A DNA stretch of 64,000 bases from a virus, in the IMG/VR virus record IMGVR_UViG_3300027921_000016, positions 33,849 to 97,848 of that record, one strand, 5' to 3'. Positions within the stretch are counted from its first letter, which is position 1; each line of letters starts with the position of its first letter. Below are positions 3,020-63,878 of this stretch, in pieces. Below the pieces are notes generated by a model. The model saw only the letters and a program-made list of their open reading frames with translations. It searched no databases and was not told where the DNA came from. The translations under genes and the position numbers were made by a program.

Positions 3020-3047
3020 AGATTAACACAATCAAGCAATTTGTCAA
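3020..3047 (-). promoter_or_regulatory. Sigma70-type early promoter
   Basis: TTGACA-16-TAATCT; one of 8 similar promoters. Confidence 0.75.
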
Positions 3048-3050
3048 TAA

Positions 3051-4241
3051 TTATTTGCAATCAATTGCAGGTAGATAGTGGTGCTGCTTGATGGTCGCGT
3101 ACACGGTCTCCGCTACCTCCGAGTGACTGAACTCAACCTGTTGTTGGTCCTCAAGCGCCTGCCTGAGAGTCTGCTGTTGCTTCATGCTTGGGCTCTTACC
3201 CATCACACTTTGGAAGCACTTGACAGCAAATATCTTGGCATCGCCTGAGCTTAACTTCGGGATATGCAGCACCAGATCGAGGCGACCTGGGCGGTACAAT
3301 TCAACTGGCAAGACCTTCAGATCGTTGGTGGTCATGACCGTGATTACCCGGCTACGGTGGTCGGACAACCACCAAAGCAGTTGGCTCATTATCCTGGCGG
3401 TCACACCTGAATCGTCCTGGCCGCCAAAGATTTTCTCCGCTTCATCAATGAGCACCACACATGGGCTCTCGCGTTCCAACATGTTCAAGCTGCGTGCTAC
3501 TCGTGACTCCGATTCACCTATGTACTTATTTAGGGTAGTAGCGATGTCCAGACGGAACAGCGGTACCTGCCAGTGATTGGCGATGGCCTTGGCCGCCGTG
3601 CTCTTACCTACTCCTGGAGCACCTGCAAGCATCAAGCCCCTGGGCACCAGTTTGTCCGGCACCCCCTGGGTGAGAAAATACTGACCATTCAACTTGAGCC
3701 ACTGTTCCAGCTTCTCCGGGTACAGGTAGAAGTCCAGGTCGGTGTCCACCACCTGAAGGCCCTGGATGGCACCCCCAACCATGGTACGAGTTCGCCTGAT
3801 CTCCGGTAGAGCCAGACTCCCTACCCTGGCCATGGTCAGCTGCACGATCTCACTGGCGGCCTTCAGAGACAGCCCTCGCAGGGCCTGGACAATCGCAGGC
3901 ACATCCTCCGGGAGGGTGAACTCCTTGAGATAGTCCGAGACCATGCTCTGGGGCGTTGGCAACTCCCCGGCCATGAACATAAATGAACTCTTGTCCACGG
4001 GGTTGATGATCACCAACGTGGATTCGGCTTCGACCAGCTTCTTGTACACCTGGGCATCCAGGATATCCAGGTTCTCGCTCACGTACACGTAGGGTCCCAG
4101 GGTTGCACTAGACAGCTTACTGGCCGGCCAGGGAACCACCTTCTTTCCTGTGAGCAACTGCAAGGACGTAGTGTAGTTCAGCAGGTCATCCGTGTACACC
4201 CCGATCACCGGAATATGGGCGTTGTAGGCTAAATCAAAAAT
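3051..4241 (-). CDS. AAA+ ATPase (Ycf46/SpoVK-like), probable ATT start
   Basis: Walker A GAPGVGKS, Walker B VVLIDEAEK, TTN sensor, RPGRLD Arg finger; frame open to ATT at 4241, 8 nt after AAGGAG. Confidence 0.85.
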   Translation of the reverse strand: MFDLAYNAHIPVIGVYTDDLLNYTTSLQLLTGKKVVPWPASKLSSATLGPYVYVSENLDILDAQVYKKLVEAESTLVIINPVDKSSFMFMAGELPTPQSMVSDYLKEFTLPEDVPAIVQALRGLSLKAASEIVQLTMARVGSLALPEIRRTRTMVGGAIQGLQVVDTDLDFYLYPEKLEQWLKLNGQYFLTQGVPDKLVPRGLMLAGAPGVGKSTAAKAIANHWQVPLFRLDIATTLNKYIGESESRVARSLNMLERESPCVVLIDEAEKIFGGQDDSGVTARIMSQLLWWLSDHRSRVITVMTTNDLKVLPVELYRPGRLDLVLHIPKLSSGDAKIFAVKCFQSVMGKSPSMKQQQTLRQALEDQQQVEFSHSEVAETVYATIKQHHYLPAIDCK

Positions 4242-6950: not shown

Positions 6951-7616
6951 TTAAAAGAAATCCCGGTACTTACCCGGACGAACACGAAGCACGTTCTTAA
7001 CGTACTCCCGATTGATTGCAAAAAAACTCTTACCGTACCCAGGCATAGCTGTTTTCTTCTTGTTGCTCGTGTACTCAACATCCCCGAACCACCTACTAGG
7101 TACGCACCCAAGAGTGGCCTCGCACACCTTCCGATCAGAAATCACCCCACCCATCCCCCCATTGTATGCGGCATAGGTAAAGGCCAGTTTTTCCTCTCCA
7201 CCCGCCCCAATGACTTTATTGTATAGCTGTAGGTTTTTTAACACAAGAGCCCGGAGTTGCCGTACAGGATCGTACCGGTCTTCCCAGGCCCATCCTCTAA
7301 GACTTGGATCGAGTACCTGCACCTCTTCAAAGGTATTGAAGCTCTTGGTGACGGTGATCTGTCCGAGACCAAACCCGTACTCCCTGCTGGTCTTCAGCTC
7401 GGCCTTGGGGCTCCAGCATCGAGGGGACTTCAAACTTGAGCACGTTTCCTGTTCCACCTGCCCCGCAAGGGTGGCTGGCTGAGGGTGGTATCTCCAATGT
7501 ACCCGCTGCTCCTGTACCAACAGGGGTAGGTACTTGACCGCCAGTGGCGGAATTTGGGCGTGGGTAGTCCATGAGGGGCATAGCAGTACTCCAAGAAGGA
7601 TTGTTTTGAATACCAC
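6951..7616 (-). CDS. Endolysin, lytic transglycosylase (SLT) with signal peptide
   Basis: LAGQVEQET catalytic Glu, GLGQIT, AAYNGG motifs; hydrophobic N-terminus ending THA-Q. Confidence 0.85.
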   Translation of the reverse strand: MVFKTILLGVLLCPSWTTHAQIPPLAVKYLPLLVQEQRVHWRYHPQPATLAGQVEQETCSSLKSPRCWSPKAELKTSREYGFGLGQITVTKSFNTFEEVQVLDPSLRGWAWEDRYDPVRQLRALVLKNLQLYNKVIGAGGEEKLAFTYAAYNGGMGGVISDRKVCEATLGCVPSRWFGDVEYTSNKKKTAMPGYGKSFFAINREYVKNVLRVRPGKYRDFF

Positions 7617-7618
7617 GA

Positions 7619-7948
7619 TCAGGCCCGTACCATTGCCCCGAACATCAGGACATACGCAGCCAGTAGAAGACACACCCCGAGGAATACCAGACCCGCACCT
7701 GTTGGGTGTACACACGCCTTCTGTGCAATCAATTGCAGATCGAGACGATAAAACAGAAGGCGACGAATGACGTGAGAGAGCGCCACTATGTAGAAGGCTC
7801 CACCGGTAAACAGTCCCCAAGGAGCTAGTGCCGGTTCATGAAAGAACTCAGCTACTGGGACGCTGGTGGACACCAATACTGTCCCTATGAGAACGAGCAG
7901 GGCCAGTCGAAGTATGTCCGGCAGGAGTACTTTCAGAAATCGGATCAT
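7619..7948 (-). CDS. Putative holin
   Basis: 109 aa, 3 TM segments, directly upstream of endolysin. Confidence 0.65.
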   Translation of the reverse strand: MIRFLKVLLPDILRLALLVLIGTVLVSTSVPVAEFFHEPALAPWGLFTGGAFYIVALSHVIRRLLFYRLDLQLIAQKACVHPTGAGLVFLGVCLLLAAYVLMFGAMVRA

Positions 7949-8400
7949 GGTGCACCCCCTAAGCCCAAGGGCACCACCGTGAACTTAATAGAAGGGGCCT
8001 CCATCGAGTGGATGAACCCCGGCCAGTCGTACCACAGCACCTTGACCCTCATCACCCAAGAACCTGGGGTCAATGCCCTGGGTAGTACGATGACCTGTTC
8101 CTTGCCGGGGGCGGCACTTAGACTTATACCCCCTCCGGAGAGCTGCTCAACCCTGCCATCGTCACGTATCTTCTCGAAGGTACTAGTAGACACCAGAGTC
8201 GAACCCCGTAGTACCCAAAGGTCTCGTTTGATAGACACCACCTGCCCCGGCACCCCCGTTGATGGGATCATGGTTTGGGTGTTACCGTACCGCAAGGGAG
8301 GGTGGCCCGCCATTACAGCGAGACAAAGGAGGCCAATTAGGGGCAGTAGCACCACGGCCACTACAAGCTCGATTAGATAGGGGCGAGCCTTGCCGCTCAC
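7945..8400 (-). CDS. Membrane-anchored hypothetical protein
   Basis: N-terminal TM helix and beta-rich domain; GTG overlaps upstream stop. Confidence 0.55.
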   Translation of the reverse strand: MSGKARPYLIELVVAVVLLPLIGLLCLAVMAGHPPLRYGNTQTMIPSTGVPGQVVSIKRDLWVLRGSTLVSTSTFEKIRDDGRVEQLSGGGISLSAAPGKEQVIVLPRALTPGSWVMRVKVLWYDWPGFIHSMEAPSIKFTVVPLGLGGAP

Positions 8401-40878: not shown

Positions 40879-43629
40879 CTAGTGCCGGTGCACGTGGCCG
40901 GCCAATTCCACTAGGTCGGGATCATTGGACCCGAACAGGTAGCTGGCCATCAGGGAATCCAGCAAGCGGGAGTCCTCTCGGGAGAGCCCCTGTACTTGGT
41001 CGAGCACCTCTTGCTTGCGGGCATCCGGGATGTCCTGTTTCCTGGCAATACCCTTGATCACTGCATAATCCTCAGCCAAGCGTACCAGCTCGCTGGCGGT
41101 CTTCGCTTTCGGGGAGGGGGTAGGGGTAGGAGGTACTACCTTTAATGGCGTGGCGGGCTTTGTAGCAGGCTGACCAGGAACTGCCGGTACTCCGGGGGGT
41201 ACTACCGGTTCCTCCGAGACCTCCAACTCCATACCGGTCACGGTGTTCATTTCCTTGATCCAGGTGTCCTTGCTGGCCACATCCTTAGCCTGGGTAAGGG
41301 CTGCAATTTGATCGGTGGCACTGGTGAGCGTCACGGGCTTGCTTTTCATCTTCAAGGATTTCAGCCCAAGGCCGCGAATAATGGTGTTGGTGATCCGTTC
41401 ATCGAACTCCTTACGCTCTGGTTGAAAGACTTGCTCTTCGGCCACCATGTACGCAGTTTGTGCGGTCGAAAAGTTGTAATCAGCGGCCTTCCCCAAGAAC
41501 AACGGTGGCAGACGAAAGCCGATACGCACATGCTCCTCCGTGGCCTTGTCGTAGTTGCCGAACATCGAGTCCATCATGCGTTCGGAGTTTCCGGTTATAC
41601 ACACCTTACCGTTTCTGCGAGTAACAAACACTCCGGTGGGCATAGTGAAACACCACACCTTGCCGGTGTAGTACTCCATACCCCACTCAGGGCATTTCTC
41701 TTTGGTTACATGTGCAAAGGTTTTTGGGGTGATCGACACGCACCACTCCTCCCTGCCCTTAACCTGTGACACTACCGAACGATACCCTGCGTGCAGGCAC
41801 AACCTTTGTACGTCATCTGCCAACCTGGGACTTACCGTGGTGTACGTCCAGCCGTCCTTCCCTTGGTCATCATTACGATGCCCGTCCCCATGCAACAAAG
41901 CCTGTAGCAACCTTTCGCTCTGTACACAGTTTAGTGCTAAAGCCATAGGAGGTATGCGTTTGGAACCGGCACCAACCCCAACCTCCGACCTCAACCATTC
42001 TCGTAAGCCGGGAGCGTACAGGTGGTACGCAGTGAAACCCCCAGCACACTCATAGGCCTTTAATTCCGACCCCGCGCTTGCTGCAACTGATTGCAGGCAC
42101 CCAGAGTTCAAAAAGTCCTTCTTCCTCTGCTTTTTAACCGATAAGTTAATAGCGCACGCGTTAGAGGGGTGATCTGTAGTTGACCCGTCAGCTATAAACA
42201 TGCCCAGGAAGTCAAGAAAGTTCCCTGCGTCATAATCCGCACCTGCTACCAAAAAGGTAGCCAACATCTCAGAGGTGTGCCCTTCCGTTGGGGCTACAGG
42301 CACCCTCACATTACTACGTGCCAGTGTCTTTATAGCCGGCTCAAAAAACCGTAGTCCTTTGCGCTCATACCACACTCTATGATTGGGGGTTACCATGAAC
42401 TCAGTGGCATGACCCTCGATCTTAACCATATACCCTTGGTAATCATACGAATGAAAGGCCAAAGGCTGGTCATACACCAGACCCTCACTCTTTAGGGATG
42501 CCACTGCCTGCCCAGACCAATCTTTGATAGGCAACCAACCTTCTTGGGTGAGCACCTCCGTGTCACTGTCAACACACCCGAATCGCTCTACTTTCACCTG
42601 CACGGTGGCTGTGCTTTCAAGAGACCCACTATTGGACTGCACGTCCACCACCACCGCCCGGTACTTGTTCTTGTTCAAGCCACTCAGGTATGCCTTGAGC
42701 TGGTTACTGGCGTCCTTTGCCAAGGTGCCACCCTGGAGAAAGATCATGGCCGGGGGCATGCCGCCAGAATCCAAGTACTCCAGATTGAGTTCCTCCGCTT
42801 TTCTGGAGCCCACCACCGAAGGCATCTGGTTCACCCAGCGAGGTACGAAATACGGGGTCTGGATATCCGGGTGGATGCCGAACATCAAAAGCTCGGTCCC
42901 TCGCTCCTCTGGTTTCACCTCGTGCACGAGATTGCCGGTAGAGCCGTCATCCTCCCACCGCCCGTCATTCCGATTGACGTGCCTGGTTGACCCGAACTCC
43001 CGGTAGTAGACCAATTGCTTGAGTGCTACCCTCTGGGCGAAGCGCCTTTCGCGCTCCCACATCGTCAACTCCACTTCCTTACCTTGACGAGTTACGGTCT
43101 TGGTTACCATCACCGGAGCATCGAGCTTCACCATACGCACGTTGTGTGTGAAGATATTTCGTAACCCCACTACCTCATCAGCAGGGTTTCGCAGGACCTC
43201 CAGGTAGGCGTACCCCACGGTCTCCAACTCCCGGCGCAAGGCTCTACGGATGCTGATAAAAGACTGACCAGGAGTGGGCTCGTTAAAAAACGCCTCAGCA
43301 GCCTCTACTTCCGCCTTGTCCGGCTCTTGGCCTTCGGCAAGCCCAACAAATTCATAGCCAGTGCCATCAATGTTGACCTCCATGGCCTCCACGCACTGAT
43401 TCAGTACGTTGTTGGTCAAGCACAGGTTCTTCAACTCCGCAGGGACGAACGGCGGCTGAAGGAATACGTTTGACTGATTCTGAGTAGTGTAATACAGCGA
43501 GGAGTATTCGTCCTCAAGCTGCACGGCACTCTGTGCCATCACCATCCACGTATCGTTGCCAATAACCTTTTGAACGAAGGTCAGAGGGTTGTCGGATGGC
43601 GCGGTCTTGGTGGTCAACGAGAGTGACAT
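40879..43629 (-). CDS. Portal protein (PBSX family) with intein
   Basis: CVEAMEVNIDGTG, GYAYLEVLRN, FRLPPLFLG..DYNFSTA motifs. Confidence 0.9.
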   Translation of the reverse strand: MSLSLTTKTAPSDNPLTFVQKVIGNDTWMVMAQSAVQLEDEYSSLYYTTQNQSNVFLQPPFVPAELKNLCLTNNVLNQCVEAMEVNIDGTGYEFVGLAEGQEPDKAEVEAAEAFFNEPTPGQSFISIRRALRRELETVGYAYLEVLRNPADEVVGLRNIFTHNVRMVKLDAPVMVTKTVTRQGKEVELTMWERERRFAQRVALKQLVYYREFGSTRHVNRNDGRWEDDGSTGNLVHEVKPEERGTELLMFGIHPDIQTPYFVPRWVNQMPSVVGSRKAEELNLEYLDSGGMPPAMIFLQGGTLAKDASNQLKAYLSGLNKNKYRAVVVDVQSNSGSLESTATVQVKVERFGCVDSDTEVLTQEGWLPIKDWSGQAVASLKSEGLVYDQPLAFHSYDYQGYMVKIEGHATEFMVTPNHRVWYERKGLRFFEPAIKTLARSNVRVPVAPTEGHTSEMLATFLVAGADYDAGNFLDFLGMFIADGSTTDHPSNACAINLSVKKQRKKDFLNSGCLQSVAASAGSELKAYECAGGFTAYHLYAPGLREWLRSEVGVGAGSKRIPPMALALNCVQSERLLQALLHGDGHRNDDQGKDGWTYTTVSPRLADDVQRLCLHAGYRSVVSQVKGREEWCVSITPKTFAHVTKEKCPEWGMEYYTGKVWCFTMPTGVFVTRRNGKVCITGNSERMMDSMFGNYDKATEEHVRIGFRLPPLFLGKAADYNFSTAQTAYMVAEEQVFQPERKEFDERITNTIIRGLGLKSLKMKSKPVTLTSATDQIAALTQAKDVASKDTWIKEMNTVTGMELEVSEEPVVPPGVPAVPGQPATKPATPLKVVPPTPTPSPKAKTASELVRLAEDYAVIKGIARKQDIPDARKQEVLDQVQGLSREDSRLLDSLMASYLFGSNDPDLVELAGHVHRH
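41587..42576 (-). mobile_element. Intein (330 aa) with LAGLIDADG endonuclease in portal
   Basis: CVDSDTEVLT...VTPNHR...LGMFIADG...LLHGDG...ITGN/S. Confidence 0.9.
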
Positions 43630-43796
43630 ACGAACTCCTTGTGCTAGTGGAGTTCATTGTACCCTACCTACGCCCGGCTGTACAAATTAAGGCTCTGCAA
43701 TTGATTGCAGACATACCAATGGCAAAGAATACTGCTCAACTCGCTCAAAAGGAAACAACGGAAGCTGCCCCCATTCAGGGCCATCTCTCCACCCCC

Positions 43797-43820
43797 CGCC
43801 GGTTAAGCTAGACGTTAGCC
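43797..43820 (+). mobile_element. attC right-arm remnant
   Basis: CGCCGGTTAAgctagacGTTAGCC. Confidence 0.6.
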
Positions 43821-43857
43821 AGCATGAACCGCTTGGTGCCCATGCTGGCCAATGTCT

Positions 43858-44028
43858 TTACTTCACCACTTCCTGCACGCTGATTTCGCGGCCGTCATAG
43901 ACGTAGCGCTCGGCCTTCTCGCCGTCCTGAAGCGCGAATTCCTCGACGGGGCTGCCGTTGTTGATGATCTTCACGCGCACTTCCTTTTCGGTCGAGAGGT
44001 GGGCGGCAATGGTTACGGTGGTCGTCAT
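43858..44028 (-). CDS. Cassette ORF, 56-aa hypothetical
   Basis: GGAGA RBS; bounded by GTTAGCC and GGCTAAC. Confidence 0.65.
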   Translation of the reverse strand: MTTTVTIAAHLSTEKEVRVKIINNGSPVEEFALQDGEKAERYVYDGREISVQEVVK

Positions 44029-44070
44029 TGGTAGTTCTCCAGTTTTTGCCGAGCTTTGCGACAGGTAGCC

Positions 44071-44139
44071 GGCTAACCTGTCCTTCAAGCTGGACTTCGC
44101 GCATAAAGCCGCGCTCAGCCCCTTAATTCTACGTTCGGC
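44071..44139 (+). mobile_element. Integron attC site (69 bp)
   Basis: GGCTAAC-ctgtcc-TTCAAG...CTTAA-ttctac-GTTCGGC imperfect inverted repeat. Confidence 0.85.
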
Positions 44140-44140
44140 G

Positions 44141-44452
44141 TCATAACATTGATGTGTCCCGCCGCACTCTCCAATGAGCCAAACGCCGTACCGCCGTTGC
44201 GCTCCACCATCTGCGCAACCGCCAAGAGAGACTTCCATTGCCCCTCCGTGAACCTCTCGTCGCCGTCGTCTCGCAGCCTGACGAATACGGTTCGCGCCGC
44301 TTGTCCACAAACATCGCCCGCTCGTCCTGCTTGTCAAACCAAAACATTCGGCTCCCGCAGCAGGCGTCCAAGACTGGCGGCAGGTCGCCCAACACAGCGG
44401 TCAAGGCAGACCGGCCATCAGCGGCTTCGTTTTTGTGTTGCTGGTCCTCCAT
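44141..44452 (-). pseudogene. Chimeric cassette ORF: 5' of SAM methyltransferase fused out of frame to 3' of another gene
   Basis: VLDACCGSRMFWFDK then loss of similarity; other frame reads TVFVRLRDDGDERFTEGQWKSL...TPNVELRG*. Confidence 0.65.
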
Positions 44453-44508
44453 TGTTCTCGTCCCTCGTTTGGTTCGTTATGGCCGGCTGCTTACCTTGGA
44501 CGTTGGGC
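44387..44508 (+). mobile_element. Integron attC site (122 bp)
   Basis: GCCCAAC...GTTGGGC; arms GTCAAG-GCAGACCGGCCAT / ATGGCCGGCTGC-TTAC with extrahelical bases. Confidence 0.85.
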
Positions 44509-44834
44509 GTCACACCCGCAGCCATAAGCAGTGCCTCACATTCCGCCCATTGGTCCTCATCAAGTAGTTCGGCAAGGCGTGCGCCGAGTTTTTGTAAGTT
44601 CTTGTCTCCCGACTGAAGTACATGCTCAAGCATTTCTTGGGCCTGGGTTGCGGTCAGTAGGTTCGTACCTGTCGGCCAGAGCGGAGAGCCTGCAATCGTG
44701 TGACCGGGCGCAAACGAGATACCTGCGTCTGGGTAAAAATCTGCCGGCAGCTTCCAGCACAGAAACCGATCAACCATCTCTTTTGTTACGTTCATTCTCA
44801 TAACCCCTTGTTTTTTACTTGCCATAGTTTCCAT
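44418..44834 (-). CDS. Cassette ORF, hypothetical (start uncertain)
   Basis: MVDRFLCWKLPADFYPDAGISF...PTGTNLL; reads through attC as TPNVQG. Confidence 0.65.
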   Translation of the reverse strand: METMASKKQGVMRMNVTKEMVDRFLCWKLPADFYPDAGISFAPGHTIAGSPLWPTGTNLLTATQAQEMLEHVLQSGDKNLQKLGARLAELLDEDQWAECEALLMAAGVTPNVQGKQPAITNQTRDENNGGPATQKRSR

Positions 44835-44837
44835 GCG

Positions 44838-44918
44838 GCCCAACAACCCAATCAAGCGGGACGCTCGAACACGCGACTTTAACTTTTGCTGGCGTGGTCA
44901 CTCGCGCCCCTTACTTTC
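44838..44918 (+). mobile_element. attC site with broken R' box
   Basis: GCCCAAC-aaccca-ATCAAGCGGGACGC ... GCGCCCCTTAC; terminal GTT absent. Confidence 0.65.
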
Positions 44919-45275
44919 CTTACGGAACGGGGTCTTGTGCCTGCCCTCTTTCACGCACTGCTTGATGTTCTGCTTCTGGGTTCCACCTGCTAGGTGATCG
45001 GGGTTTACGCACAACCGATTGTTGCACAGGTGCCGCGCCACCATCCTCGGGGTCATACGCAGGTTCTTGAAAGCCACTATGGACATGCGGTGCGCACCCA
45101 CAGTGTAGTGCTTCCCTTTCCTGGGGCCTTTCTTATACCGCATGGACATCATGGGGTACCCTGCTGAGGTGCGGCCAACCCACAACCAGCAGGCAGTACC
45201 GTTGTACCAGTCCTCACTGTACGGGGAAACGACGCTATTGGCCAGTATCCTCTCTGCCAGTGAAGCGTATTTCAT
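44898..45275 (-). CDS. HNH endonuclease
   Basis: CWLWVG...AHRMS...RHLCNNRLCVNPDHL. Confidence 0.85.
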   Translation of the reverse strand: MKYASLAERILANSVVSPYSEDWYNGTACWLWVGRTSAGYPMMSMRYKKGPRKGKHYTVGAHRMSIVAFKNLRMTPRMVARHLCNNRLCVNPDHLAGGTQKQNIKQCVKEGRHKTPFRKESKGRE

Positions 45276-45697
45276 AGAACCTCCGTCAGAGGACCGCCAA
45301 CATCGGTACTCGGCTGACTAGCTAGTCTTTCAGCCCCCACACGCTCTTCCTCCCGTATGAGCAGCTCCAGGCGTGCAAGGGCATTCCAGGCTGAATGGGC
45401 CGCGTGCATGAGGCCGGACTCCAGGTCATAGGTCTCCCCTCTAGCCTCTGACAATAGGTGCCTGTACATGGCGTCTGTGTATCGCTCTTGCGCGCGGTCT
45501 ACTCTCAACCAGTTACCAGGAGCGTATTTCTGTGCTCCGAAGGTGGTCACCATAGCCACAGCGGTCAGTGCTCGTGCGAAGTCTTGCATCCTCAAGCCTA
45601 CCCTGGGCTTGCCCTGGTCGTACTTACGGCCGTGATCCAGTGCACCTACATCTTGTGGTGCGGTACACTGGGCAGAGGGGTGAATGGTATTAGACAC
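45272..45697 (-). CDS. dATP/dGTP diphosphohydrolase (DUF5664-like)
   Basis: GRKYDQGKP...FGAQKYAPGNW...AMYRH...DLESGLMHAAHSAWNAL. Confidence 0.85.
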   Translation of the reverse strand: MSNTIHPSAQCTAPQDVGALDHGRKYDQGKPRVGLRMQDFARALTAVAMVTTFGAQKYAPGNWLRVDRAQERYTDAMYRHLLSEARGETYDLESGLMHAAHSAWNALARLELLIREEERVGAERLASQPSTDVGGPLTEVL

Positions 45698-48600
45698 GTT
45701 CGTAGCCCTTTAGGTACGCCATATCCAATCCAATCTTGGCATCGGCGGTAAACTTCAATTGAGGATTCCATCCCACCAAATGGAAAGGCAGGTTCTCCAT
45801 TATCTCCAATTGCTTGGGCAAGATGATGTCTACCTGATCCTCAGGGATATAGTTGTAGGCCGCGTCGTGAATTGCCCCAAAACAGGGGGAGACCTTGGAC
45901 AACCCCTGCTTGTGCTCTAGGGCGATAGTCCATATCAGCATGTCACTGAGAGTGCCTTGGATGGGAGAGTTGATAGCCTGCCGCTCGGCCCCACTTGCAA
46001 CCTCCCTATTGGGGGAAGTGATCAACGGCAGGTGGCGGATACGGCCAAGGGGGGACCGTACTTGGCCCTCTTTCTTGGCCATAGCCTTGTAAGAACTGTG
46101 GTACGTGAGCAGCCTTGGGTACGTGGCAAAAAACGCAGCATGAAAGGCCGTGGCTTCTTCCATAGTGAAGTACACCCCGTAGTTCTTAAAGGCGTAAATC
46201 TGGAAGCCCTCAGCCCCCATCCCGTACAGCAGACCAAAATTTCCGGGCTTGCCCTGCTGGCGGTACTTGGCGAACAACTCCGGGTCTGATACCTTGAGGG
46301 CCATCATCTCCTCGTATGTGAGGCCCGCAGCCTTGCCCCCGGTAATCACGTGCAGGTCCTTGCCGTCCTTATACGCCTGGAGCATCACCTGCTCATTGGC
46401 TACACAGGCAACGACCTTCAACTCCCCCTGGGAGTAGTCGCGCTCCACCACCAGATGCCCATCAGGGGCAATGTAGCAACGACGGATGCGCTTGGCCCAT
46501 TTCGTATGCTTGGGCACGGTGTTGTGCACCACCACCCCGTTAGCCACAAATGAGTGGCTGCCTTCGATGGTCAGGTCGAAGGTTTCACACTCCCCAGCAG
46601 GCACTACCGCTACTACTTTAATCTCTTGGAAGACATCCCGGTCCCAAGGGTCTCTTTCATCAAGGCTTGCTCCATCGGCATCCCCACGGATAACCGATAG
46701 TGCAACCGTCCCCGACTGATCCCGGCTTCTGACGCCCACTCGGCTTCGGTCTTGGTCTGCCCATTCCACGCGATCTTCTTGGAGTTCGTCTTGTTGCTCC
46801 CCTGTTGCTTGGGCGTAGCCCAAACACAGTTTCCCGGTTCGTAGTTGCTGTTCACGTCCAACCGCTCCACCGACATACCCTTGCAAGGCTTCTCCCCCAT
46901 GTCTTCCAGGAACTTGGAGAACTCCACCCACCGGGGGCACAACGTGATGCCACGACCCCCGTACCTCGGCCAATCCTTGCTGGTTGGACTGGTGCAACGA
47001 CTCTTCATGGCCACCCATGAGTGGTACGTTGGACTGGTGTACCCCTGCGTCCGATGTTGAACCCCTGTCCCTTTTAGCGGCATAACAAATATCCCCCGGT
47101 AAGAGTTGATCAGTACGAACCCACCCGCGAGAGGTCAGGTAGGGATGGTTCTCGGTACTGCCTACGATTATACCCGTTTCAAACGAAACGTCAAACACAG
47201 GTTGAACCCCATTGCGGTACACCCCAACAACCTCACGCCATGCTCCGGTATGCGTCAGTACCCTGTATGACTTGCCGCCCTCATACCCCATAACAATGGA
47301 CTCTATAGAAACGGCACCAGTATCGGTAAGCACCAAACTGCTGCCTCTCAAACACTGGAAGGTGGGCGCGTGGCAGGAGAGCCTACCGGTGTTGTGAGTT
47401 ACGATCCCACCAGTGACATGACTCTCATCAACCTCGACGGTAAGGCCATAAGTACGCACAGGAGTGGTGTCAAGTACAACCCGTACAACCTCAGACAAGG
47501 AGAATTTTGCCTCTTTCCCCCCGTAGTCTCTAGCCTCCCCTCGCTGTCCTGCCCGCACCGCGCGAATGAGCCTTTCACACACCCCAAACCTTTCAGACAA
47601 AGCCTTATTAGCCCACCCATGGTGGCGAGTAGCCACGGGCTGTGCCCGAATAAAATCAACAGCAGCTTGGCACAGTTTAGCCTGGGCACCGGTCCTACGA
47701 TTCATGGTCCCGTGGTTCACAGCGTCCTGCCGGTTACCCTTTGAAGTACCCCACCGTAGGTTACCCAACGTGTCATCCCAAGCAATGCCATTAAGATGGC
47801 GAATCTCGTCTCCTTTTCCTGGGACGTGGAACACCCTGGCCATAAGGCCGTGCACAGAGAAATCTTTTCGATCTTCCCCCCGAGATTGAGCGCCATTCCT
47901 GTACAAACAAACCTTCAAGTGCCCCCATTTTTCTTTAGGGTTCTGGGTAAGGAACTTACCCGTCTTGGTGTTGAATACCCGCCCCCAAGTACTCACCCTA
48001 AAGTCCTCCCAGTCGGGTACTACCTTCCACTCTTCTTTTCCACTGTGCACTACGATTGGGTCCCCAGGTTCAAGGTCTATAGCCTGCACCCAACAAACAC
48101 CACCTCCTACGAGGTACTTATGGTTCGGGGTTGTTCTTAGCTCCAACCCATTCGCTAAAGTGACGGTGACAATGGGCTGTACCCCGTTATCAACCGTAGC
48201 GGTAACCCGTCGAATCCTTCCGGTATGGGAAATAACTTGGTCGCCTACCTGAACACTCTCAACCGGTAGATACCCTCGATCAGTTAGCACCAACTCCCCG
48301 GCGGGCATACAGTTGGTTCCCCCTTCTCCTTCATCCTTGTTCCCGGCAAAGAACCAGTAACTTGGGTGCATGCGCCCATCCGAGCGTATGTGCTTCATGA
48401 ACCCCACCACGTAAGTACTCAGGGTCTTCGTGGCACTAGCATAGTCCTTGATCACGTTAATGAAGGCCTTGGCCTCCGGCACGTCCTCGAACTGTAGCAG
48501 GTGGTCCAAGCCTGTACTAGGGGCCTTGGTCCTCTCCGTAAACACCTTTGGTTTCAAGTTCAACCCCATGGGGCTGAACATGTAGTCGGTGATCATGCTG

Positions 48601-50552
48601 GCTTTGGTGAGGTTCAACCCGCCTAATTTGTCCGGGTCATAGTGCTTGGCCACCACCCGCCCACCGAGTACCCCCTTGGCCTGTGCAATCAATTGCAGGA
48701 TTTCAGTATTGAGATCGGCCTCCAACTCCAAAAGCCGTTCCCTGGAAACTAGGACTCCACCTTGCTCTACGGACTCAAACGCTCTGGCAGCCGGGTGCAT
48801 GATGTTCACGTAGAAACTGGTGAGCTGCCTGTCCTTGAGCAACTCCTGTTTCATTACATCCGCCACCTGCAAGGTAGCGTCGGAGTCCCCTCCCGCGTAG
48901 GACAGCAGCTTCTCAGGGGGGACGAGATCAATCCGTGACTTGTCTACTGTACGGTCAAATTCATCGCTGTTATGGCTGGCTAAGCCTTCGGCAATAAAAG
49001 TTGACGTGGAAGTTTTAATACTGACCACCTCCTGCACCCCAACAGGGGTTGCAGACACTACAAAATCATGAGTGTACTCCTGTGGGAGTGTGCACCCCCA
49101 CCAGTCCCCGTGATCAAGTAATCTGATAGGCCGGTACTTCTGGAGCACTAGCAAACCGCCGTAAGAACCCCTACAGGTTACATTATGACAACTCTTTCCG
49201 GCAGTTATATGCAAGGTAAAATCGTTTCCGGCTATAGACAGCGCCCTGTCCAAGACTAACCCCGGCTTCTGTGCAAATCCTAACCTGAATGAGTTTGAAT
49301 GGGCCGCCTTAGTGGTCCACCCCTCCCCGTCCAGCACCCCACTAAACCACCCGGAATCAAAATCGTCACCAGGAGGTATAACCTCGGTGACTCTTTTTAT
49401 TCTCTTACCCACCAACAACGGGTCCTCTGTCCTCATCCACCGAAGATTGCCTCCCTTCTCCCCCATGTTGACTAACCACATGTGATTGGCACTAACCCGC
49501 ATTTTAGTACCAGAAGACATCACTATGTCGTAACAAAGCAAGTTCAGTCTCTGCACTGACAATACCGCAGATTTCTTAATTACCCTCCTGCCTGTACTAG
49601 GGGAATGCTCATCAAAACCAACCAGGGTATCTCCCACCTTAACGCCGCTGGCCTTAGACCAGGATAGGTCCCCCATCCACAATCTTGTGTCGGGGGCCAC
49701 ACAGTAGCCCGCTAAGGAAGGTACATACACCTTGGCGTGCACGTCCAGGCCATTACTCCGGTTCTCGTCAAGAAGGGAACCCACCAACGTGGTGTCGAAC
49801 ACAAAGTTCGTACACACCAATCCCCCACGCACCCACAGCCAGTGAAGATCGTACTTCAGGTTGGCGCCCTTCATCTTCACCTTGGGGGTGGTGAGTATCC
49901 AGGCCAAATCAGCTACATGAAGGAGAGAAGAAAACCACGCCTCTTCTCTACCCCGGTTCTGAAACCGCAAAACTGCGGACTCCCCTTTTACAACCGACAT
50001 CTGAATGCTCACGACATAGGCTCCAGGATGGGTCAGGGTTGGTTTGAGGTACGGGTCGAGCCCTACGGTCTCTAAGTCCAGGGCCACATCAACCTGGGTT
50101 TGAGTGCCCTCGTACTGATCCTCGATGAACTTCCGTAGGGTATCGAACGAGTGCACATACTCGTACTTCCCATACACCGGGGCCATACTTCCTGTTTCGT
50201 GATACCTGAGGGCCATGCTAGTGTCGCACTGCAAATCCACATAATGTGCGTAGTCCACCACCTGAACGCCGGGGCTGTAGCTCACCAAGGCCCTCATCTT
50301 GGTCAGAGGCAGGGAGATTGGTTGATTGCGCAACCCCGTTACCTTCCTGCCTTTTGGAACGAGCTTCTCCTGCGCCAGCGCCTCCAGGGGCTCCTGCCCT
50401 AGACAAAACAAAACCCCTTCCAGCCCTTGCAGGCTTGGGAAGGAGCTGAAATCGTTGAGTACCTTTATCGGTATGTGCGGGTAGGCCTTAAATTGCACCC
50501 CCAGAGACTTCTGGAGTTTTGGTTGATCCATCTTTGTCCAGATCAGAAACAT
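45690..50552 (-). CDS. polA: Family A DNA polymerase (UDG-like N-terminus, 3'-5' exonuclease) with three inteins
   Basis: LDLET exo I, NLKYD, TGRLS, DYSQGEL motif A, K..NFGLLYG motif B, IHDA motif C. Confidence 0.95.
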   Translation of the reverse strand: MFLIWTKMDQPKLQKSLGVQFKAYPHIPIKVLNDFSSFPSLQGLEGVLFCLGQEPLEALAQEKLVPKGRKVTGLRNQPISLPLTKMRALVSYSPGVQVVDYAHYVDLQCDTSMALRYHETGSMAPVYGKYEYVHSFDTLRKFIEDQYEGTQTQVDVALDLETVGLDPYLKPTLTHPGAYVVSIQMSVVKGESAVLRFQNRGREEAWFSSLLHVADLAWILTTPKVKMKGANLKYDLHWLWVRGGLVCTNFVFDTTLVGSLLDENRSNGLDVHAKVYVPSLAGYCVAPDTRLWMGDLSWSKASGVKVGDTLVGFDEHSPSTGRRVIKKSAVLSVQRLNLLCYDIVMSSGTKMRVSANHMWLVNMGEKGGNLRWMRTEDPLLVGKRIKRVTEVIPPGDDFDSGWFSGVLDGEGWTTKAAHSNSFRLGFAQKPGLVLDRALSIAGNDFTLHITAGKSCHNVTCRGSYGGLLVLQKYRPIRLLDHGDWWGCTLPQEYTHDFVVSATPVGVQEVVSIKTSTSTFIAEGLASHNSDEFDRTVDKSRIDLVPPEKLLSYAGGDSDATLQVADVMKQELLKDRQLTSFYVNIMHPAARAFESVEQGGVLVSRERLLELEADLNTEILQLIAQAKGVLGGRVVAKHYDPDKLGGLNLTKASMITDYMFSPMGLNLKPKVFTERTKAPSTGLDHLLQFEDVPEAKAFINVIKDYASATKTLSTYVVGFMKHIRSDGRMHPSYWFFAGNKDEGEGGTNCMPAGELVLTDRGYLPVESVQVGDQVISHTGRIRRVTATVDNGVQPIVTVTLANGLELRTTPNHKYLVGGGVCWVQAIDLEPGDPIVVHSGKEEWKVVPDWEDFRVSTWGRVFNTKTGKFLTQNPKEKWGHLKVCLYRNGAQSRGEDRKDFSVHGLMARVFHVPGKGDEIRHLNGIAWDDTLGNLRWGTSKGNRQDAVNHGTMNRRTGAQAKLCQAAVDFIRAQPVATRHHGWANKALSERFGVCERLIRAVRAGQRGEARDYGGKEAKFSLSEVVRVVLDTTPVRTYGLTVEVDESHVTGGIVTHNTGRLSCHAPTFQCLRGSSLVLTDTGAVSIESIVMGYEGGKSYRVLTHTGAWREVVGVYRNGVQPVFDVSFETGIIVGSTENHPYLTSRGWVRTDQLLPGDICYAAKRDRGSTSDAGVHQSNVPLMGGHEESLHQSNQQGLAEVRGSWHHVVPPVGGVLQVPGRHGGEALQGYVGGAVGREQQLRTGKLCLGYAQATGEQQDELQEDRVEWADQDRSRVGVRSRDQSGTVALSVIRGDADGASLDERDPWDRDVFQEIKVVAVVPAGECETFDLTIEGSHSFVANGVVVHNTVPKHTKWAKRIRRCYIAPDGHLVVERDYSQGELKVVACVANEQVMLQAYKDGKDLHVITGGKAAGLTYEEMMALKVSDPELFAKYRQQGKPGNFGLLYGMGAEGFQIYAFKNYGVYFTMEEATAFHAAFFATYPRLLTYHSSYKAMAKKEGQVRSPLGRIRHLPLITSPNREVASGAERQAINSPIQGTLSDMLIWTIALEHKQGLSKVSPCFGAIHDAAYNYIPEDQVDIILPKQLEIMENLPFHLVGWNPQLKFTADAKIGLDMAYLKGYERV
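46521..47354 (-). mobile_element. Polymerase intein 3 (278 aa)
   Basis: CLRGSSLV...TENHP...FDLTIEGSHSFVANGVVVHN/T. Confidence 0.9.
46613..47083 (-). CDS. HNH-type endonuclease nested out-of-frame in intein 3
   Basis: YHSWVAMKSRC...YGGRGI...ERLDVNSNYEPGNCVWAT. Confidence 0.8.
   Translation of the reverse strand: MPLKGTGVQHRTQGYTSPTYHSWVAMKSRCTSPTSKDWPRYGGRGITLCPRWVEFSKFLEDMGEKPCKGMSVERLDVNSNYEPGNCVWATPKQQGSNKTNSKKIAWNGQTKTEAEWASEAGISRGRLHYRLSVGMPMEQALMKETLGTGMSSKRLK
47391..48311 (-). mobile_element. Polymerase intein 2 (307 aa) with NUMOD4/HNH endonuclease
   Basis: CMPAGELV...EEWKVVP...VSTWGRV...HLNG...NLRWGT...VTHN/T. Confidence 0.9.
48969..49703 (-). mobile_element. Polymerase intein 1 (245 aa) with single LAGLIDADG motif
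   Basis: CVAPDTRL...FSGVLDGEG...FIAEGLASHN/S. Confidence 0.9.
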
Positions 50553-63729: not shown

Positions 63730-63806
63730 TGGCCCACTTGGAGGGAATCGAACCCCCGACCGTCGAGGTAGAATCTCGTTGCTCTAATCCACTGAGCTAC
63801 AAGCGG
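63730..63806 (-). tRNA. trnR: tRNA-Arg(TCT)
   Basis: Cloverleaf: CCGCTTG/CAAGTGG acceptor, GCTC/GAGC D-stem, loop ATTCTAC, TTCGA T-loop, encoded CCA. Confidence 0.9.
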
Positions 63807-63878
63807 CAAAAACATTTACGTCAACACGGACGCTACGCCGATGAGGACGGATTCGCGCCGGTTACGCCAGCGTTAGGC
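63807..63878 (+). mobile_element. Integron attC site abutting tRNA
   Basis: AAC-atttac-GTCAACACGGACGC...GCGCCGGTTAC-gccagc-GTTAGGC. Confidence 0.75.

Follow-up and report, generated by a model that had tools for sequence, protein, structure and literature searches.

Integrons are regarded as bacterial devices for gene capture, and the presence of attC sites in phages has been shown only recently. The integrase IntI cleaves the R' box of an attC site between G and TT, so that the final six bases of the box move with the following cassette, whose own R'' box they match (the circle rule). Inverted cassettes are encountered in chromosomal integrons, where they are mostly toxin–antitoxin cassettes equipped with promoters of their own.

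Among the closest systems described so far are the 17 clusters of attC sites lacking an integrase (CALINs) found in phages, virulent ones among them (Qi et al. 2023, PMC9892861). IntI1 recombined five of the six phage attC sites that were tested, and methyltransferases were noted among the cargo of these clusters (Qi et al. 2023). The cassettes of TJE1 and PH101 are arranged like those of bacterial arrays, and the paper makes no mention of genes antisense to attC (Qi et al. 2023). Phage CALINs are thus already published, and the locus described below is less new than was assumed in a preliminary description of this DNA. What the present analysis adds is a systematic reverse polarity of the viral cassettes and the occurrence of common cassettes in unrelated viral contigs; full-text searches of open-access papers and preprints did not retrieve a description of a reverse-polarity phage cassette pool.

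The phage is represented by the IMG/VR record IMGVR_UViG_3300027921_000016 (97,848 bp), a self-closing sequence with a 55-bp terminal overlap that is rated complete, and this 98-kb phage is probably virulent. The window, that is, the whole stretch of DNA analysed, comprises 64,000 nucleotides (bases 33849-97848 of the record); coordinates given below are those of the window unless they are marked as genome positions.

attC sites between the polymerase and portal genes

Near the array, all convincing genes of the window are on the minus strand. In the direction of phage transcription, the array is preceded by the genes for a DNA polymerase with intein-like inserts (45690-50552, minus strand), a dATP/dGTP diphosphohydrolase-like protein (45272-45697, minus strand) and an HNH homing-type endonuclease (44898-45275, minus strand; Pfam PF05551 and PF13392, and PHROG endonuclease families), and it is followed by the portal gene, which also contains an intein-like insert (40879-43629, minus strand). 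The polymerase and portal ORFs are 1620 and 916 residues long, respectively, versus 1130 and ~608 residues in relatives, and the polymerase of one relative (L001) likewise carries one insert. The last ~9 codons and the stop codon of the HNH gene come from the L' arm of the adjacent attC site, and this gene is the boundary of the array.

All four attC elements named in the preliminary description were recovered, displaced by a base or two at most from the positions given there, and in all of them the top strand of attC is the plus strand of the window. The downstream end of the array, with respect to phage transcription, is a truncated site consisting of a right arm only (43797-43821, plus strand), with an L'-like TTAAGC, a spacer and the R' box GTTAGCC at 43815-43821. 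This stump is similar to the right arm in the consensus of the bacterial sites, CCCCTTAAnTCAAACGTTAGCC, and a left arm was not found for it; the earlier identification as a lone right arm stands, and only its end, previously set at 43820, has to be moved by one base to take in the whole R' box. The site of cassette 1 is complete and 69 nt long (44071-44139, plus strand; R'' GGCTAAC, R' GTTCGGC at 44133), as is the 122-nt site of cassette 2 (44387-44508, plus strand; R'' GCCCAAC, R' GTTGGGC at 44502), which has a central part of 64 nt and R boxes complementary at 7/7 positions. The site of cassette 3, at the upstream end of the array (44838 to ~44925, plus strand), runs into the end of the HNH gene; it has R'' (GCCCAAC), L'', the loop and L' and, as first described, lacks R'. 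A break of this site precisely at the crossover G was considered and rejected, since the spacer is too variable for placement at the level of single bases.

The two complete sites have core boxes of the attC type (R'' RYYYAAC and R' GTTRRRY, with conserved AAC and GTT), namely GCCCAAC/GTTGGGC at 44387 and GGCTAAC/GTTCGGC at 44071, and bacterial arrays (L013, L015) contain both variants as well. The motif of the left arm, G[GC]C[CT]AAC-N4-7-NTCAAG[GC], occurs four times in the 97.8-kb genome, always on the plus strand, compared with a mean of 0.17 occurrences in shuffled sequences. As expected from attC polarity, the unpaired bases (the C in TCAAG, the next C/G and the A before the inner stem) are confined to the 5' arm. 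With three scoring sites and the stump within 1.1 kb, the segment has the composition of a CALIN rather than that of a complete integron: there is no intI in the genome, and the absence of an integrase that had been noted for the window extends to the entire 97.8-kb genome, in which no tyrosine recombinase of any kind was found, although the search used recovers Xer-type recombinases in 14/14 control genomes. None of 50,697 phage records matched the 1.7-kb region in a nucleotide search.

A fifth site, complete and also on the plus strand, lies outside the window at genome positions 196-285, and its first 20 bases (196-215) are identical at 19/20 positions to the segment from R'' through L'' of the R'-less site (44838-44857). 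Together with a weak, possibly degenerate attC (63805-63878, plus strand; 14.8 bits and E 0.15 with the covariance model R2 described below), this strong site flanks a further reversed cassette across the circular junction, with a 95-codon ORF on the minus strand. The weak attC-like site is directly abutted by a gene for tRNA-Arg (anticodon TCT; 63730-63806, minus strand).

Between the array and the portal gene, a consensus scan points to a terminator-like hairpin (43775-43757, minus strand) and a promoter-like site (43684-43656, minus strand). Because of this arrangement, the cassettes may form the 3' end of the transcription unit on the polymerase side, and the simplest reading is that the cassette genes would be expressed by read-through from that side. 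The interval between the attC stump and the promoter-like site also contains a 14-bp palindrome, TGCAATCAATTGCA (43696-43709), which scores as a terminator-like hairpin too.

The bacterial site family and the circle rule

One genome per prokaryote species was scanned for GCCCAAC-N6-ATCAAGCGGGAC, which returned 60 loci, mostly from Methylophilaceae (Methylotenera, Methylophilus) and other Nitrosomonadales and Burkholderiales. Most of these loci contain an element of ~60 nt with the classical layout of attC, which consists of an R'' box, a spacer, TCAAGCGGGAC, a short stem-loop, CCCCTTA, a second spacer and GTTRRRY. The bacterial elements are organized in co-oriented arrays with a spacing of 0.3-1.5 kb, and their R' box differs from site to site. 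An integron integrase scoring above the curated cut-off (413-490 bits versus 265) was detected in 5/5 array-bearing genomes and in 0/14 controls, which identifies the bacterial arrays as true integron arrays.

Model R2 was built from an alignment of 88 distinct bacterial attC sites with an explicit structure of 21 base pairs and with no phage sequence included; the covariation in this structure exceeds that in all 500 column shuffles and in all slid controls. Run unfiltered on the whole phage genome, R2, which is the covariance model of this analysis and not the attC model of IntegronFinder, gave its four best matches genome-wide at 44071-44139 (36.2 bits, E 6.5e-8, full length, model positions 1-60), at genome positions 196-285 (34.1 bits, E 2.7e-7, full length), at 44392-44503 (20.2 bits, E 0.0038, model positions 6-55) and at 44850-44916 (17.9 bits, E 0.017, model positions 13-48), the remaining matches having E of 0.027 or worse. 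In the cmsearch alignments, the consensus bulges of the 5' arm are preserved, which bears out the earlier remark on extrahelical bases in the arms, and the matches are on one strand only. In related phage DNA (97 kb and 46 kb), R2 found nothing better than E 0.15. By the combined evidence of sequence and predicted structure, the phage sites belong to the attC family found in chromosomal integrons of Methylophilaceae and their betaproteobacterial relatives.

Several other approaches proved uninformative. Model R1, with an automatic RNAalifold structure, was discarded, having only three base pairs; simple regular expressions missed most of the viral sites, for which a covariance model was needed; and an Rfam search returned chance-level matches only, Rfam having no attC family. 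Folding, which the preliminary description had proposed as a check, did not discriminate: minimum free energy folding of single sites as single-stranded DNA gave z values of 0.60, -1.83, 0.17 and -0.32. Folding energy was therefore dropped as support for the sites, two of three being no better than shuffles (z 0.60 and 0.17, as against -1.83 for 44387-44508).

The circle rule, which had been claimed for the cassette ends, applies in the window: the three junctions pair with the R'' box of the next site at 7/7, 6/7 and 7/7 positions. The R' box of the stump pairs with the R'' box of the site at 44071 at 7/7 positions, whereas the R' box of the latter site pairs with its own R'' box at only 5/7. 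Across the viral arrays introduced below, R' and R'' of neighbouring sites form perfect pairs in 19 of 30 cases, as opposed to one of 29 for pairs within the same site, and of the 24 cases that are informative, 19 point to the next site and one to the same site. This is the pattern expected from crossover at G|TT, and judging from it, the phage cassettes appear to have been recombined by IntI at that position. A plain G|TT target was not found at the array junctions of this phage, where both array ends are truncated sites.

Cassette genes and their recurrence in viral contigs

Cassette 1 carries ORF A (43858-44028, minus strand), which encodes 56 residues and has a GGAG ribosome-binding site and its own stop codon. 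This protein has 41 homologues, up to 89% identical, and AlphaFold2 predicts for it, with a pLDDT of 96, a fold of five beta strands. It has a structural counterpart in Pseudomonas phage EL (TM 0.96), and this and the other near-identical structures, from Caulobacter and Xylella phages, all belong to uncharacterised proteins. A search of 301 Methylophilaceae genomes did not detect ORF A. This result and the fact that the fold twins are phage proteins point to a phage origin of the cargo. Directly past the ORF A stop codon, positions 43810-43857 form an inverted repeat with 17-nt arms that are 88% complementary and a loop of 14 nt, which takes in the stump R' box GTTAGCC and has in its second arm GGCCAAT, a near-R'' sequence.

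The ORF of cassette 2 (44141-44452, minus strand) is a remnant of a SAM-dependent methyltransferase gene, with a start codon inside the loop of the next attC. The remnant covers only the first ~50 residues of an enzyme of ~175 residues: the PHROG DNA methyltransferase families match its residues 23-56 only, and tblastn with full-length methyltransferase homologues recovered residues ~3-50 only, the rest being absent in every frame. A metagenome protein of 73 residues (P0147) is 77% identical to the remnant (window 44282-44452), and the match takes in the first ~22 residues, whose codons lie in the loop and left arm of attC. The shared attC-encoded N-terminus implies that the truncated methyltransferase cassette exists, with its attC, elsewhere.

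ORF C of cassette 3 (44418-44795, minus strand; 125 residues from the ATG at 44795) has a conserved N-terminal domain of ~60 residues and 105 homologues, the closest of which (P0001) is 93% identical. Its tail runs through the R' box, as TPNV, into the adjoining attC. In the family alignment, the N-terminal core is invariant, and the tails of many members pass TPN, with R' in frame, and then diverge completely, which is to be expected if the same gene sits beside different neighbours. The two ORFs that were reported to read through attC were found again, as frames crossing R' in the form V(M/T)TPNV, one of them being only a 36-codon frame in the decayed cassette. The T-P-N frame is used by the R'-crossing minus-strand ORFs at 44118-44225 and 44418-44510 and at genome positions 97681-175, and it recurs in contigs L071 and L074 and in the proteins P0001-P0007 and P0064; past the box, the adjacent attC supplies tails that are unrelated to one another. 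In the consensus of the bacterial sites, a stop codon follows TPNV immediately in this frame. The constant frame may be a by-product rather than a functional peptide, because one frame of the extended box TGACGCCCAAC contains a stop codon and the frame is an inherited one in the ORF C family.

In all three window cassettes, the gene is on the bottom strand of attC. They depart in this respect from the canonical cassette, in which a promoterless top-strand gene is followed by attC; the window ORFs are all on the minus strand, antisense to cassette polarity as the preliminary description had it, and the reversed genes run in the direction of phage transcription. The same arrangement prevails elsewhere. 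With polarity called from the longest ORF of each cassette, a call that partly depends on ORF length in G+C-rich arrays, the ORF is antisense to attC in 27/31 viral cassettes, and codon-position GC agrees with the call in 23/31. The bacterial cassettes show the opposite picture, with the longest ORF sense in 53/55 and antisense in 2/55. Reversed polarity is general for the viral arrays analysed.

A motif scan of viral contigs yielded ten loci, nine of which carry a phage variant 88-90 nt in length, comparable to the site at genome positions 196-285. With R2, the loci resolve into arrays of up to eight co-oriented sites, which adjoin genes for lysis, tape-measure, tail-fibre or portal proteins or a Mu-type transposase, and phage hallmark genes are present in the array-bearing contigs. 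Homologues of ORF A are located inside the attC arrays of L081, L082, L086 and L088, always on the strand opposite to the sites, and a homologue of ORF C is inside the array of L071. Furthermore, the window, L081 and L082 have in common the R box GGCTAAC/GTTAGCC and the leader of the ORF A cassette from R'' to the start codon. Cassettes are thus shared between viral contigs, and this recurrence of the ORF A and ORF C families lends support to the phage-side cassette pool that had been suggested from the window sequence alone. The array of L086 (3441-5936) has at least ten co-oriented attC sites, with a spacing of 170-470 bp and very small antisense ORFs of 36-155 codons, and the contig carries a gene for a Sak-like annealing protein.

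Full-length IntI genes were detected in the IMG/VR contigs L081 (37 kb; 7027-8046) and L082 (31 kb; 751-1761), with scores of 473 and 470 bits (cut-off 265). As in bacterial integrons, they diverge from the polarity of attC; the array genes have the same direction as intI and lie on the strand opposite to the sites. No hallmark virion or structural genes were found in the parts of L081 and L082 examined, and the two contigs could be bacterial DNA filed as viral. At the head of the attC array of L071 is an N-terminal IntI fragment of ~100 residues (3024-3464); this contig also has holin- and spanin-like genes.

Origin of the array and comparison with known systems

Relatives with 55-70% identity in the portal protein, by which they were retrieved from viral and metagenome collections, lack attC in the interval from the polymerase to the portal gene and carry other small genes there; the comparison of cassette order among relatives that had been proposed therefore yielded no case of cassette gain or loss within the lineage. 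The array in this phage is a recent and already eroding acquisition, as evidenced by the lack of a recombinase, the stump at one end, the loss of R' at the other, the pseudogene cassette and the relatives devoid of attC. With two of its four sites truncated and one cassette reduced to a pseudogene, the array may no longer be active. The second, smaller cluster at the circular junction argues for more than one acquisition event.

We consider it probable, with odds of about three in four, that segment 43797-44925 is a partly eroded CALIN with three reversed cassettes that come from a pool circulating among phages and are moved by IntI in trans. The segment is a cluster of attC sites devoid of an integrase and holding three gene cassettes, each with its gene on the bottom strand of attC, so that attC is upstream and not downstream of the gene. 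Under this scenario, cassettes would be drawn from the phage pool, and the cutting and joining at G|TT of R' would be carried out in trans by IntI from either a chromosomal integron of the host or an integron-bearing co-infecting phage. The cassette genes would probably be expressed by read-through from the operon on the polymerase side. A more ambitious proposition, which we advance only tentatively, is that phages keep a mirror-image cassette pool, with IntI encoded by some phages and borrowed from the host by others, this one among them, and that the reversal functionally separates the phage and bacterial pools. If so, a phage cassette captured by a bacterial attI would point away from Pc, and a bacterial one that entered a phage array would be oriented against phage transcription.

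The signs of erosion could also mean that a fragment of an array was captured just once, by illegitimate recombination in the variable region that separates the polymerase and portal genes, and has been decaying ever since with no exchange. Such a relic would fit the attC stump at the left end, the right end without R', the truncated methyltransferase in the middle cassette, the genome without a recombinase and the relatives without sites. It is nevertheless an unlikely explanation, given that two sites are complete and score well, that ORF A and ORF C are undamaged and belong to conserved families, and that a second site or pair of sites, 34 kb away at the genome junction, points to more than one event.

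Two other explanations were considered. The sites could be hairpin repeats peculiar to the phage, serving as terminators, in RNA processing or as recombination hot spots, which came to resemble attC by convergence and are no substrate of IntI, as might be thought from their position between genes and, on the mRNA strand, ahead of each gene, and from the existence of a phage-specific variant of 88-90 nt. Convergence, however, would hardly produce an E value of 6.5e-8 against a model made from bacterial sites only, with the bulged bases kept; R' pairs with R'' of the next site and not with that of its own, a feature for which a terminator has no need; and sites of this family are found next to IntI genes both in bacteria and in two viral contigs. 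This possibility is accordingly very improbable. Still less credible is a chimera in which host integron DNA was misjoined into the phage contig: although the record is a metagenome assembly, the array has phage genes on both flanks within one self-closing contig, its cargo is phage-type, ORF A not having been found in 301 Methylophilaceae genomes, the strand of the cassette genes matches that of the phage, and the same architecture is repeated in many independent viral contigs.

An eroded CALIN supplied from a circulating pool, the reading that we favour, suggests that phages swap small accessory genes of their own by the recombination chemistry of integrons, and that virulent phages lacking a recombinase can draw on the reverse-polarity pool. 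It would account, by a concrete mechanism, for some of the mosaicism seen in the accessory regions of phages. The match of the attC family to integrons of the Methylophilaceae type also provides a clue to the host, and ORF A and ORF C, as small and widely shared phage proteins, are candidates for roles in counter-defence or host take-over.

With regard to known systems, the insertion of cassettes by IntI at secondary genomic sites, as far as it is outlined in a preprint (bioRxiv 10.1101/2022.09.11.507474), could provide an entry route for a first attC where there is no attI. Compared with that outline, the phage junctions differ in showing no plain G|TT, both array ends being truncated sites. 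The array resembles the phage CALINs of Qi et al. (2023) in having two or more attC sites, no IntI and a small accessory cargo that includes methyltransferases. It is unlike them in that every gene is on the bottom strand, and the comparison is extended here by cassettes that recur in unrelated viral contigs and by a site family that can be traced to one bacterial group. With the sedentary integrons of Methylophilaceae, Nitrosomonadales and Burkholderiales, the phage sites share R'' GCCYAAC, the L'' box TCAAGCGGGAC, L' CCCCTTA and R' GTTRRRY, as well as bulged bases at the same places and the same circle rule. However, those bacterial sites are mostly 58-60 nt long and come after a sense gene (53/55), whereas the phage sites are 69-122 nt long and come before an antisense gene, and, unlike these bacteria, the phage has no intI. 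Finally, the cassettes are similar to the inverted ones of chromosomal integrons (compare, in part, PMC13108822) in that the gene strand is opposite to the polarity of attC. The reversed viral genes encode small phage proteins, whereas the inverted bacterial cassettes are mostly toxin–antitoxin pairs and constitute a minority within sense arrays; in the viral arrays, reversal is the rule.
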